DNA from: Rickettsiales bacterium
GTDB lineage: Bacteria; Pseudomonadota; Alphaproteobacteria; Rickettsiales; UBA1997
NCBI GenBank assembly: GCA_038123275.1
Contig: JAYORG010000002.1
Coordinates: 10,083 to 74,082, forward strand
DNA: 64,000 bases
Direction of reading: 5' to 3'
A model generated the notes under the pieces. The model worked only from the letters and a program-made list of their open reading frames with translations. It searched no databases and was not told the origin of the DNA. Positions within the stretch are counted from its first letter, which is position 1. Every line of letters begins with the position of its first letter. Both the position numbers and the translations under genes were made by a program. Shown here piece by piece: positions 56,402 to 59,431 of the stretch.

Positions 56402-59400
56402 ATGTCAAAGCATAGTGGAACTCATGTTGGAAAATCTAGAAAAGGATCTTCAAAAAGTAAATCAGCTCGAGGAGAAGGAAGGTTAAGAGCAAGAGAGCAA
56501 AAATTTGATTCTAGATCTAAATCAAAAGAAGCAATAATAAGATCAGAGTTATTAGCCCAAAGAGCTGCTGACAAAGAAATAACCTTTGACGTTTGGCAGA
56601 TGATGTCAGAATTTGCAAAGTTATTAAGTGGAGATCAAAAATCATCTCCAAAATTTAGTGATATACCAAAAGATATTAGAGATACTGTTGCACAAAATAA
56701 TCGAGTTTCAAATGGGCTAGAAAGTCAAAAAGTTATATTTAAAAAAGTTAAAGAAATATTCTTAAATTCTACAACTCAAATTAGAAGAGAGCAAGAAATA
56801 CCAGACTTAAATGCTTTTGCACAGCTAGCTATTAGTGAAATTACTAAACAATTTACCAAAGATAAAGATTTCCAATCTTTTAAAAGAAGTTTAAGATCAG
56901 ACGCCAGTGCAGGAGATTTAGCAGTTAGTTTATTTTATAATGTCTGTGCCACAATACAAAGAGACGGCTTAGGTACAACAATGTACGAGATTGATGAAAA
57001 AGTTGATGAATCAACATATGATACACCTACTGTTTTAAAGAGAATGTGTTATAACTTTGGAAGCGGTCTTGAAGTTGAGCAACATAAAGAGCTCATATCA
57101 GAAGTATTTTATAAACAATTAAAATCTCTTTCTGGAAAGAAAGGTTTTGTTTGGAATAAAGAATCTTGTACAAAATTAGTATCAAGCGTTACTTCTTCTG
57201 ATAAGTTTCATTCTTTTACAGGAGTGTCTAACAAAAAAGAAAGAAACTTAGTTAATCTAGACTACATGACCCATGTTGTTTCTTTAGCTGCAAAAAATGC
57301 TTCTTTACCTCTCATAAGAGAAGAAATTCAAAAATTATTACAACTCATCAATGATAAAAAAGTTTCAGGCAAAATTAAGCCTTGGAATAAAAAATTTAGA
57401 GAAAAAATTGTTCAAGAGGTATCAGAAAAAGTAGTAGGTTTATTTGATGACTATTTCCAAGAAGATGTTATGTTAGCAGTTGAGCACGAAACTTTAGCTA
57501 AGTTATCACAAGAGACAGTCCCTATAAAACTTGCACAAATAGGAAAAGAGGGCAATAAGAAGAAATCCTATGATGATATTGCTAATGATATTGCTAAAAA
57601 TATATTTGATGGTTTGTCAGGAACTGCTAGAAAATCATTAATATTTCAAATAAAACAAGCAATATCCAGACAGCAAGAAATAGATATATGTCATACAGTT
57701 GATTTGGTTGTTAAATCTGGTTTAAGTTTACATGATAGTAAGTTTAATGAGGCTGTTTACAAAACATTTAAAAAAGAATTTGGTTCTAAAAAATTTGGTG
57801 AAATTGAATTTTTACCTATTTTAGAAGAAACTTTAAAACAAGTTAAGGTTCAAGATACAGTTAATATTATTGTTACTAAGCACTTAAAGGCATCAGGAGA
57901 TAAAGATATTGATCCTAACAAACTTTTACTTGAGGTTCAAAGTTCTATCAAATCTTTAAAGAAAAATAAAGATAAGGCAGCAAAATTAATTCAAAATTCT
58001 TTACATCAAGTATCTCAAGAAAGAGCAAATATAGAAGAAAAGGACGTTAAAGGCTCTGAATCTAAAAAAGGTAGCAAAAAATCAAGAAGTTGTATAACAC
58101 CAATGGCCAAAAAAGCATTAAGAGCAATAATGCTTCTTGGTGCAGTAGTTCCTAGTGCTACAACATTAATTGATGGTGGCGATGGTATAATGGGCACTGT
58201 TAGTTTTGCCTCTAGCATAAATAATAATGGTACAGTTTACGAAACATATAGCCATAATGGTGGTGATGTTACTTTATTTGTTGATGATAATGATGGTCAA
58301 ATTCACTTATTATATTTTAACTCATCTGGTGTTCTTCAAGACCATCCGCTAGCATTTACAAGAGATGGAGTTATTAACAGTGGCAATCTTCAAGTTCATA
58401 ATTCTCATACTAATAATTATGAGCTGGGTGGTGCTACTGTTCTTGATAATGGTGAAATAGTTGTATATATAAATTCCAACTTCATCACCTTAGATACAGT
58501 GTTTGAAGGCTATAGTCCTGATGAAAGAAATATATATGAGTTTCGAATTAATCCAGATGAAATAACAGCAAATGTTCCTTTAGAGTTGGTAAGTGCTAAT
58601 GCTCAAATATTAACAAATGGCATTGTTGCAGGCACCATAGGAGCTCAAATTCTTGATCAAACCGACCAAACATACATACAAGATGGGCAAGTAGACCAAG
58701 TTTCTAACAATGACACTCTTGCTAATTGTTTTAAATTTAGATTTTTATCAAGAGAGCCTGATTTTGATGAATATAGAACTGTGGTTTTAGATTATTCAGA
58801 AGGTGGGCGTGAATTTAGAGATGAGGCTTTCTTTGATAATAATTGCGAAAGGCAATATATTGCCTCTCCCTCATTGACGCCATCACCCTCATCAACTGGT
58901 AGCGCATCTCCATCAATTGGTAGCTCATCATCATCAACCGCTAGTCCATCATCAACCGCTAGTCCATCATCAACCGCTAGTCCATCATCAACTGCTAGTC
59001 CATCATCATCAACTGGTAGTTCATTTTCATCAACTGCTAGCCCATCATTTTCATCAACCGCCAGCCCATCATTCTCATCAACTGGTAGTGCATATAATGT
59101 AACATTTCCGTGTTTGCCTTATAATACAACAAGTTCAGAATTTTTATGTCCACTATATAACATAACAGACACAGAATTTTTATGTACACCATATGACTTA
59201 GATCCATGTATCATAACAGAGGATAATTCCACAAATAATAATGACGATTTCCCCTATGTTGAAGTATTGGTACCACTTGCTCTTTTTGGTGTTATGGCAT
59301 CTGGCTTAGCTGCTTATTGTTATTGTAGAAGTAATGAAAAAATTTCTGTACCAAATCCAAAAGTAAAAAAACCTAGCTTTATGTCAGTAGTTCAAAGGAG

Positions 59401-59431
59401 TGAAGAGGTAGATTTGGTAAAGCTACCATAA
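56402..59431 (+). CDS. large hypothetical protein with Ser-rich repeat stalk and C-terminal TM anchor
   Basis: 1009 aa. Basic N-terminus with no signal peptide; internal hydrophobic segment ALRAIMLLGAVVPSATTLI. SPSSTA/SPSFSST repeats, duplicated YN.T..EFLC.Y motif, TM VLVPLALFGVMASGLAAYCYC, then a 40-aa tail. Confidence 0.6.
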   Translation: MSKHSGTHVGKSRKGSSKSKSARGEGRLRAREQKFDSRSKSKEAIIRSELLAQRAADKEITFDVWQMMSEFAKLLSGDQKSSPKFSDIPKDIRDTVAQNNRVSNGLESQKVIFKKVKEIFLNSTTQIRREQEIPDLNAFAQLAISEITKQFTKDKDFQSFKRSLRSDASAGDLAVSLFYNVCATIQRDGLGTTMYEIDEKVDESTYDTPTVLKRMCYNFGSGLEVEQHKELISEVFYKQLKSLSGKKGFVWNKESCTKLVSSVTSSDKFHSFTGVSNKKERNLVNLDYMTHVVSLAAKNASLPLIREEIQKLLQLINDKKVSGKIKPWNKKFREKIVQEVSEKVVGLFDDYFQEDVMLAVEHETLAKLSQETVPIKLAQIGKEGNKKKSYDDIANDIAKNIFDGLSGTARKSLIFQIKQAISRQQEIDICHTVDLVVKSGLSLHDSKFNEAVYKTFKKEFGSKKFGEIEFLPILEETLKQVKVQDTVNIIVTKHLKASGDKDIDPNKLLLEVQSSIKSLKKNKDKAAKLIQNSLHQVSQERANIEEKDVKGSESKKGSKKSRSCITPMAKKALRAIMLLGAVVPSATTLIDGGDGIMGTVSFASSINNNGTVYETYSHNGGDVTLFVDDNDGQIHLLYFNSSGVLQDHPLAFTRDGVINSGNLQVHNSHTNNYELGGATVLDNGEIVVYINSNFITLDTVFEGYSPDERNIYEFRINPDEITANVPLELVSANAQILTNGIVAGTIGAQILDQTDQTYIQDGQVDQVSNNDTLANCFKFRFLSREPDFDEYRTVVLDYSEGGREFRDEAFFDNNCERQYIASPSLTPSPSSTGSASPSIGSSSSSTASPSSTASPSSTASPSSTASPSSSTGSSFSSTASPSFSSTASPSFSSTGSAYNVTFPCLPYNTTSSEFLCPLYNITDTEFLCTPYDLDPCIITEDNSTNNNDDFPYVEVLVPLALFGVMASGLAAYCYCRSNEKISVPNPKVKKPSFMSVVQRSEEVDLVKLP
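58865..59089 (+). repeat. in-frame Ser/Pro/Thr tandem repeats (18-bp and 24-bp units)
   Basis: GCTAGTCCATCATCAACC repeats at 58940, 58958, 58976 and 58994 (last two with variants), followed by SPSFSST-type 24-bp units. Confidence 0.9.

Follow-up and report, generated by a model that had tools for sequence, protein, structure and literature searches.

A lineage-specific, repeat-bearing protein with a predicted two-anchor membrane layout in a Rickettsiales-like bacterium

Where would a bacterium place a protein that begins as a long, basic chain and ends like a eukaryotic surface glycoprotein? The question is raised by a 1009-aa open reading frame (ORF) in a 64,000-nucleotide stretch of contig JAYORG010000002.1 from a Rickettsiales bacterium (hereafter the window). 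In the original prediction, made from the DNA letters alone, the C-terminal third of this protein was described as a mucin-like type I stalk with a transmembrane (TM) helix and a short tail, and a membrane-inserting effector, a surface adhesin, or a host-derived or host-mimicking segment was proposed. Our analysis indicates that it is most likely a lineage-specific, membrane-anchored accessory protein with a repeat tract, encoded by a Rickettsiales-like bacterium. For the choice among effector, adhesin, and envelope protein, we tentatively place a resident of the inner membrane ahead of an exported effector.

The ORF is a genuine and intact gene. Independent translation reproduced its predicted coordinates, length, and overall layout with small corrections, and the ORF listing holds no competing ORF of at least 80 aa inside 56402-59431 on either strand. 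A stop-free run of 1,009 codons in DNA of 30% guanine plus cytosine (GC) cannot have arisen by chance. All four segments of the gene show coding-like GC content at each codon position, with third-position values (GC3) of 0.157-0.195 compared to a window ORF mean of 0.18, and the gene taken together has a codon-usage log-likelihood of 0.30, the same as the average over the other 52 ORFs (0.30 ± 0.05); its codon usage is native to the genome. Over this region, the window is matched at 100% identity by Logan contigs assembled from other sequencing runs. One of them, L022 (SRR26337545), corresponds to window positions 48406-58958 and continues unbroken through the junction at residue 568 (M568), while another, L002 (SRR26337543), runs from about 58963 past the stop codon into surA. 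Both terminate within a perfect 18-nt repeat array, where short-read assemblies break, and therefore only the repeat copy number is without independent support; as the length of each unit is divisible by 3 nt, the reading frame is unaffected by it.

The original prediction had itself raised the fusion of two genes by a sequencing error. M568 with the signal-like segment behind it does resemble the start of a separate gene, and a collection of 15 billion proteins that includes all neighboring products lacks this exact one under each of the 11 start codons tried; the gene may be unannotated, labeled a pseudogene, or withheld. Nevertheless, the sequence of an independent run is identical straight across the junction and the coding-type pattern of GC1, GC2, and GC3 continues on both sides of it in one frame, so that we reject a fusion artifact and regard two joined genes, or a noncoding ORF, as a negligible prospect. 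Of 45 genes of the window, only 2 have a Shine-Dalgarno-like motif ahead of them, starts lie in AT-rich leaders, and the choice of start codon, including the internal M568, can therefore not be judged from ribosome binding sites.

Much of the predicted layout held when the protein was dissected (Table 1). The basic N terminus carries neither a signal peptide nor a hydrophobic stretch in residues 1-60, the Lys/Glu-rich region contains 82 Lys or Arg and 70 Asp or Glu in residues 61-560, and the basic patch and hydrophobic segment expected after it both lie within residues 555-590. The domain that follows exists, with 230 rather than about 250 aa. Behind it, at 58880-59093, the Ser/Pro/Thr tract comprises 10 DNA units, each 18, 21, or 24 nt long, with a higher GC content than elsewhere in the gene; SPSFSST occurs twice, as claimed, and exact SPSSTA three times plus one SPSSST variant instead of four times. 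The duplicated Cys motif was recovered as a 36-nt tandem duplication at 59120-59191 with copies 78% identical, and the number of Cys between the two hydrophobic segments is even (776, 815, 904, 916, 928, and 936). A second hydrophobic segment is found where the terminal TM helix had been placed, followed by a tail of 34 and not 40 residues. N-x-S/T sequons are locally enriched in residues 898-952 (4 observed against 1.2 expected, P ∼0.013, with two of the four stemming from the duplicated motif), whereas residues 591-952 as a whole contain no more of them than chance would give (7, with 7.2 expected from shuffles); a significance of the sequons is not supported. No internal repeats were found outside the Ser/Pro/Thr tract, and no paralog of the gene was found in the window. 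Single-sequence AlphaFold2 (AF2) models gave helix throughout residues 1-560 (model of residues 1-593) and only β strands, with a β meander at 610-650, for residues 589-826, but the predicted local distance difference test (pLDDT) values of 39 and 35, respectively, make both unusable.

Charge and composition divide the chain at the hydrophobic segments. Residues 1-571 have a net charge of +25, residues 591-952 one of −35, and the tail one of +3, and the 15-residue flanks carry +5/−2 around segment 1 and −4/+4 around segment 2. Composition switches at segment 1, from Lys-rich, helical sequence with an isoelectric point (pI) of 9.1 to Lys-poor, Asn/Gly/Ser/Thr-rich, β-rich sequence with a pI of 4.06. 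Given this charge pattern, the positive-inside rule points to a layout with the N terminus in, the loop out, and the C terminus in, which predicts a two-anchor protein and not one of type I as a whole. The claimed likeness to a type I glycoprotein stalk applies to the C-terminal 440 residues, where a leader-like segment, ectodomain, stalk, Cys region, TM segment, and basic tail follow one another, and not to the complete protein with its two predicted anchors.

The reading that we lean toward, with limited confidence, is that of a resident two-anchor accessory protein of the inner membrane with a periplasmic loop of ∼360 aa. We infer membrane insertion, topology, SecA route, disulfides, glycosylation, and biological role alike. 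The basic helical N-terminal domain of 570 aa would remain in the cytoplasm, and the weakly hydrophobic segment 572-590, with a Lys/Arg run before it and an acidic stretch after it, would act as an N-in signal-anchor that is recognized cotranslationally by SecA, not by the signal recognition particle (SRP), in the fashion of RodZ. SecA and SecYEG would move about 360 residues into the periplasm, comprising the acidic β-rich domain, the repeat spacer, and the four-Cys region, until segment 953-975 halts the transfer and leaves the 34-aa basic tail back in the cytoplasm. The flexible Ser/Pro/Thr/Ala spacer would be a plausible site of bacterial O-glycosylation, and the small four-Cys region would probably form disulfides. 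The role of such a protein may be to link a scaffold or binding domain in the cytoplasm with a binding domain facing the periplasm, and because of its location in a variable slot (see below), the gene would be dispensable and either evolving or turning over fast. A protein of this kind would explain the distribution of charges, a composition of the exported type, and the pairing of Cys. Above all, it would explain the loop of 360 aa, for which Sec/SecA-type translocation would be needed. The neighboring genes for envelope proteins, namely, an OppA-like substrate-binding protein (SBP), an NRAMP-family transporter, SurA, and CtpA, favor it weakly.

The hydrophobic segments themselves are marginal. 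Kyte-Doolittle values of 1.74 for segment 1 and 1.98 for segment 2 both lie above the classical threshold. With a simplified Hessa scale, and the proteins of the same window as the comparison set, simple sums for 19-mers were +3.75 and +1.99, respectively, and the best cores of 12 to 17 residues reached +0.68 and +0.19. The 13 signal peptides, anchors, and transporter TM segments of the window all scored −2.5 to −5.2, and soluble enzymes of the window scored −1.2 to +5.5, with a GcvPA segment at +2.44 as a 19-mer.

Low hydrophobicity has a possible explanation in the targeting route. Segment 1, with 571 residues before it in all, is directly preceded by KKGSKKSRSCITPMAKKALR, and residues 591-617 after it (DGGDGIMGTVSFASSINNNGTVYETYS) include three acidic residues and no Lys or Arg. 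For the internal anchor of RodZ, the determinants of SecA targeting shown experimentally are a long N-terminal element, consecutive basic residues upstream of the TM segment, and an acidic early periplasmic region (PMC5674894), and all three are also present at segment 1. In the favored reading, segment 1 would be less hydrophobic than SRP clients because of such SecA-type targeting. Intermediate hydrophobicity has been described as a property of TM proteins that are secreted by type III (T3SS) or type IVB (T4BSS) secretion systems and evade SRP (PMC6110835); by analogy with RodZ, it is also to be expected of internal anchors that use SecA rather than SRP.

Several observations weigh against residence in the inner membrane. 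Both segments are far weaker than 13 of 13 native Sec/SRP signals and TM segments and lie inside the range of soluble proteins, and the Hessa sum of +3.75 predicts poor insertion of segment 1 by the translocon. With both ends pinned in one membrane, the 77-aa "stalk" cannot project a domain. Furthermore, the gene is not conserved even where the NRAMP transporter is 82% or the SBP 73% identical, which is unusual for a structural component of the envelope, and neither structural model (pLDDT 35 and 39) reaches usable confidence.

The original prediction had recognized no homolog, and we found none in protein, profile, PDB, genome, metagenome, viral, or plasmid searches. A word-indexed search of 5.8 billion clusters with the full-length protein and its C-terminal 112 aa and an exhaustive phmmer search of 1.84 billion cluster representatives with residues 1-822 both returned zero matches at an E value of ≤1e-3. 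Scans with back-translated patterns found nothing in GTDB genomes, JGI metagenomes, or IMG/VR, tblastn against plasmids (PLSDB) found nothing either, and the protein showed no similarity to any of the fetched relative loci. There was no match in the NCBIfam and PHROGs profile libraries or to the PADLOC defence-system models. Searches of Pfam with the whole protein and three pieces yielded only subthreshold matches, to DUF5498, DUF5370, and RF-1, which we take as chance; the one nearest to threshold aligns 32 residues to DUF5498 with 23 bits against a cutoff of 27, and no literature was found on DUF5498 or on the sequencing runs. PDB sequences gave no match, the one alignment (E = 0.27) lying on the low-complexity tract. 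These negatives cover indexed sequences, among which products cut at the ends of short contigs are seldom on record; on this basis, the protein is a lineage-specific orphan.

A block of tyrA(PDH), a 55-aa ORF, an orphan ORF (ORFan) of ∼115 aa, ctpA, and surA is conserved in five relatives, and what lies past surA differs among them: the OppA-like SBP gene follows directly in L007 (12470-14260), yajC-secD in L005 (12521-14452), HEPN/NTP_transf and SduA_C defence genes in L008 (6664-8590), and a convergent gene for a leucine-rich repeat (LRR) protein in L010 (6486-7397). The window has the arrangement of L007 (SBP 73% and ORFan 69% identical) with the NRAMP gene and the orphan gene inserted between surA and the SBP gene on the opposite strand, and these two genes are present or absent together relative to L007. 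Closer relatives, found via the NRAMP protein, retain the SBP-NRAMP pair (L013, 78%; L012, 82%). In L012, the first 45 nt past the NRAMP stop are conserved, including TAGACA-17-TATAAT, and we infer that the corresponding element at 56319-56347 of the window acts as a promoter. The ORF behind this element in L012, of which 157 aa are visible before the contig ends (L012 2570-3116 compared to window 56315-56872), starts with MPSNRRKKRQVERNRSRQK and has no similarity to the orphan protein (blastp E = 6; Smith-Waterman z = 0.4). Since the content of the slot differs among relatives and an unrelated ORF stands behind the same element in L012, the orphan gene occupies a turnover-prone slot with a putative promoter of its own. 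No direct or inverted repeats suggestive of a mobile element flank it.

Three features of this locus are recorded here in their own right. The L012 ORF, too, opens with strongly basic sequence. In the NRAMP ORF, the earliest in-frame start is GTG 54968, from which the frame would share 59 nt with the divergent SBP gene; the product on record and the L012 ortholog begin behind this stretch (54968-55054), at ATG 55055 (419 aa). The ORFan directly upstream of ctpA encodes 121 aa with a basic N terminus (window 61912-62277, minus strand; L007 9632-9979; 69% identical) and found no family match; an ORF of similar size without a Pfam match occupies its position in all five relatives, preceded in four of them by an ORF of ∼55 aa.

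A host-interacting TM effector, exported by a type IV (rvh) or another secretion system, is a serious rival that we nonetheless consider unlikely. It would be anchored in the host or vacuolar membrane by both segments, or by the C-terminal one alone in tail-anchor-like fashion, and its N-terminal helical domain and tail would face the host cytosol. The intermediate hydrophobicity fits the "niche" of SRP-avoiding T3SS and T4BSS substrates (PMC6110835), and two segments with N-in/C-in orientation are the commonest layout of TM effectors of T4BSS in Legionella and Coxiella (PMC12981334). With TM effectors of type IV secretion systems (T4SS) such as Legionella SidF, the protein shares one or two TM segments of intermediate hydrophobicity, the N-in/C-in prediction, a cytoplasmic C-terminal tail, and orphan status. 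Its setting is also in keeping with an effector: it is an orphan in a variable slot, the same promoter precedes an unrelated gene in L012, an LRR protein occupies the equivalent surA-adjacent slot of L010, two ankyrin-repeat proteins and a Fic protein are encoded within the window, and the named nearest relatives of the neighboring CtpA are metagenome-assembled genomes (MAGs) of Rickettsiales or Rickettsiaceae. The basic C-terminal tail with an EE pair would suit a secretion signal, but such features are nonspecific in a Lys-rich proteome. The region between the segments is the main obstacle, with ∼360 aa (591-952) against <30 aa for ∼80% of known T4SS effector loops; loops as long as that of the orphan are essentially absent from known T4SS TM effectors (PMC12981334), and larger periplasmic inserts impaired the translocation of SidF, an 8.6-kDa domain inserted in its loop cutting it by 80% (PMC11602083). 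Such an effector would need its acidic loop of 360 aa to be inserted posttranslationally across the membrane of a host, for which no route is known. No secretion-system gene (vir, rvh, or dot) was found in the 64-kb window, and a host-associated or intracellular lifestyle is only presumed for an organism with many biosynthetic genes in the window (ilvD, gcvP, purC, purM, and hemF).

The hydrophobicity scores also bear on whether the protein enters a membrane at all. A soluble multidomain protein, cytoplasmic or secreted, in which the two segments are buried or amphipathic helices and the Ser/Pro/Thr tract is a disordered linker, would suit best-core scores (+0.68 and +0.19) that lie within the range of soluble enzymes, whose minima reach −1.2, and would suit the lack of an N-terminal signal peptide. 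We consider it improbable, given that both segments exceed the Kyte-Doolittle threshold, that they stand exactly at the switch of charge and composition with positive-inside flanks, which is unlikely by chance, and that the middle region, in being acidic and poor in Lys and in having paired Cys, looks like an exported domain. Still less probable is a horizontally captured eukaryotic or viral type I glycoprotein module, comprising the C-terminal 442 residues from M568, fused to the basic helical domain and serving as a host mimic. From M568 on, the order of elements is that of a complete type I mucin-like glycoprotein (leader, ectodomain, Ser/Thr/Pro stalk, Cys-rich juxtamembrane region, TM segment, and short basic Cys-containing tail). 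Moreover, the segments are rich in Ala, Gly, Val, and Leu compared to the Ile/Phe-rich native TM segments, juxtamembrane Cys (a palmitoylatable CYC tail) precede a basic stop-transfer sequence, sequons are enriched in residues 898-952, and eukaryote-like ankyrin (Ank) genes lie nearby. Against this stand a leader that is internal, after 567 residues, and cannot act as a signal peptide does in a eukaryotic precursor, GC3 and codon usage that are native in every segment, sequons at chance level overall, a locus without flanking mobile-element scars, and the absence of any eukaryotic, viral, or other homolog of any part in our searches, while a bacterial explanation exists for every element. The proposal of a host-derived segment is not supported, in view of the same codon usage and the lack of relatives in our searches, and we reject recent horizontal transfer from a eukaryote. 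The related idea of a self-contained mimic or ancient capture of a type I surface glycoprotein, exported for display on host membranes, is to our mind a slim chance.

For the inner-membrane protein that we favor, the closest analogy is with RodZ-type bitopic proteins. RodZ has a low-complexity linker and a β-rich periplasmic domain, and both likewise have counterparts in the orphan protein. Also shared are a long cytoplasmic helical N-terminal element, a basic run, an internal, moderately hydrophobic TM segment, and an acidic early periplasmic region (PMC5674894). The orphan differs in having no sequence similarity to any family, a cytoplasmic domain five times longer without a helix-turn-helix (HTH) domain, a second TM segment and a cytoplasmic tail after the periplasmic part, and a gene that is not conserved among close relatives.

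A repeat tract of this composition also has bacterial parallels. The Ehrlichia proteins gp36 and gp47 and Ehrlichia ruminantium's mucin-like protein are Ser/Thr-rich tandem-repeat proteins (TRPs) with lineage-specific units (PMC3533933). The orphan shares with such Anaplasmataceae TRPs (E. canis gp36 and E. chaffeensis gp47/TRP47) a Rickettsiales affinity at the level of the order, an acidic context, a lineage-unique repeat, short units of 6-9 aa rich in Ser, Thr, Ala, and Pro, and repeat DNA richer in GC than the rest. The TRPs are, however, small (∼150-320 aa), have neither the pair of hydrophobic segments nor the large helical domain, and are mutually orthologous by synteny; for the orphan, whose neighbors are the NRAMP gene and surA, we found no homology at any threshold and no synteny with the gp36/gp47 locus. 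By this comparison, a Ser/Pro/Thr repeat is not exotic for the Rickettsiales clade. PglL-type O-glycosylation modifies disordered periplasmic regions rich in Ser, Ala, and Pro (PMC12645811), and the segment ASPSSTASPSST in the predicted periplasmic region is of this kind. Known PglL substrates in Neisseria, Burkholderia, and Acinetobacter usually carry one or a few sites compared to the 77-aa repeat array of the orphan, and an O-oligosaccharyltransferase is not known from this organism, with no gene for one found within the 64-kb window. By analogy, it is plausible that the "glycoprotein stalk" has a bacterial counterpart in O-glycosylation substrates. The statement that such an architecture is unusual for a proteobacterial protein was therefore overstated, in view of both the mucin-like repeat proteins of Rickettsiales (PMC3533933) and the PglL substrates (PMC12645811).

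Other assignments were rejected. Membership in the RodZ family proper lacks a Pfam match to either the N-terminal HTH domain (MreB binding) or the C-terminal DUF4115. Chlamydial Inc-type inclusion membrane proteins have a bilobed short-hairpin domain that is absent here, where the segments lie 362 residues apart. An autotransporter or type V secretion (T5SS) adhesin of the rickettsial Sca type, which would have a signal peptide at its N terminus and a β-barrel translocator domain at its C terminus, finds no Pfam or NCBIfam match, and the C terminus of the orphan consists of a helical segment and a 34-aa tail. For an anti-phage defence protein there is no PADLOC match; L008 has defence genes beside surA.

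The protein is at present an orphan with an interesting architecture but no functional handle, and a candidate for a localization and topology study; in itself it is no discovery. Should the two-anchor topology hold, it would be a taxonomically restricted envelope protein that combines a RodZ-like, SecA-type anchor with a repeat-rich, possibly glycosylated loop, in a poorly sampled Rickettsiales-like lineage that carries eukaryote-like (ankyrin) genes. The unrelated genes behind the same promoter in close relatives would be a small natural case of turnover at a locus facing the host or the environment. Were the protein exported instead, it would challenge the rule that secreted TM effectors have only short loops, and a true glycoprotein mimic would define a class of bacterial effectors whose large domain is luminal or extracellular; we currently know of no route by which they could be exported or inserted.

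Table 1. Features of the orphan gene, its product, and the region immediately upstream (window coordinates)
Feature	Position	Strand	Remarks
NRAMP-family transporter gene	55055..56314	+	87 nt upstream of the orphan gene; same strand
Promoter-like element TAGACT-17 nt-TATTAT (with TG)	56319..56347	+	consensus scan; just past the NRAMP stop
Complete coding sequence, 1009 aa + stop	56402..59431	+	ATG start; 111 kDa, pI 6.2
Strongly basic, probably disordered N terminus, residues 1-60	56402..56581	+	17 Lys + Arg, pI 11.0
Lys/Glu-rich, predicted all-helical domain, residues 61-554	56582..58063	+	composition; AF2 secondary structure
Basic patch KKGSKKSRSCITPMAKK, residues 555-571	58064..58114	+	directly upstream of hydrophobic segment 1; net +5 in the 15 residues before that segment
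Hydrophobic segment 1 ALRAIMLLGAVVPSATTLI, residues 572-590	58115..58171	+	putative internal signal-anchor, marginal hydrophobicity
Acidic, Lys-poor, Asn/Gly/Asp-rich, β-rich domain, residues 591-820	58172..58861	+	pI 4.06; Cys 776, 815
Ser/Pro/Thr/Ala tandem-repeat spacer, residues 821-897	58862..59092	+	77 aa
Four-Cys juxtamembrane region, residues 898-952	59093..59257	+	duplicated YN-x-T-x-x-EFLC motif; acidic, Asn-rich end
Hydrophobic segment 2 VEVLVPLALFGVMASGLAAYCYC, residues ∼953-975	59258..59326	+	putative stop-transfer TM segment
Basic tail, residues 976-1009	59327..59428	+	34 aa, pI 9.8; ends SEEVDLVKLP

The neighboring genes identify the source as a Rickettsiales-like alphaproteobacterium, as far as their sequences allow. 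The window, at ∼30% GC, is densely packed with housekeeping genes (pgk, glyS, priA, pyrG, purC, purM, hemF, cysS, gcvPA/PB, ilvD, and mraW). The best relatives of its CtpA, 67-70% identical, come from metagenomic contigs, and the named matches, at 57-63%, are mostly Rickettsiales or Rickettsiaceae MAGs. Two ankyrin-repeat proteins of 781 aa (41263-43608, minus strand) and 475 aa (31084-32511, plus strand) are without an NCBIfam family, the larger one having a basic N terminus, and relatives also carry Ank and LRR proteins. Such eukaryote-like ankyrin proteins suggest a host-associated lifestyle. Because of the Ank, HTH-Fic, and pilin-like genes in the window and the Ank and LRR genes in relatives, the organism is probably host associated, and probably not strongly reduced.

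Some further genes of the window deserve mention. An overlapping pair encoding HTH_3 (150 aa) and Fic/DOC (194 aa) proteins at 48809-49838 (plus strand) resembles a toxin-antitoxin or AMPylation module; the Logan contigs L022 and L023 carry this pair as well. Five large pilin-like ORFs (274-341 aa) with a hydrophobic N-terminal helix lie at 34243-37442 (minus strand) and 39560-41261 (plus strand), three of them tandem and paralog-like and two flanking cysS; the Pfam N-terminal methylation motif was found in four of the five, the exception being 36417-37442. Similar pilin-like genes occur in L010, one with a weak Laminin_G_3 match. An enzyme of the MbnB/TglH/ChrH family (289 aa) is encoded beside a DUF2063 protein (251 aa) at 24721-26311 (minus strand), a pair typical of maturation loci for ribosomally synthesized and posttranslationally modified peptides (RiPPs) or methanobactin-like peptides. 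Finally, three ORFs of 360-409 aa on the plus strand (50365-51594, 1235-2344, and 11771-12853) have no significant Pfam family, the first giving only a weak CsiD match, and two of the three have signal-peptide-like N termini.

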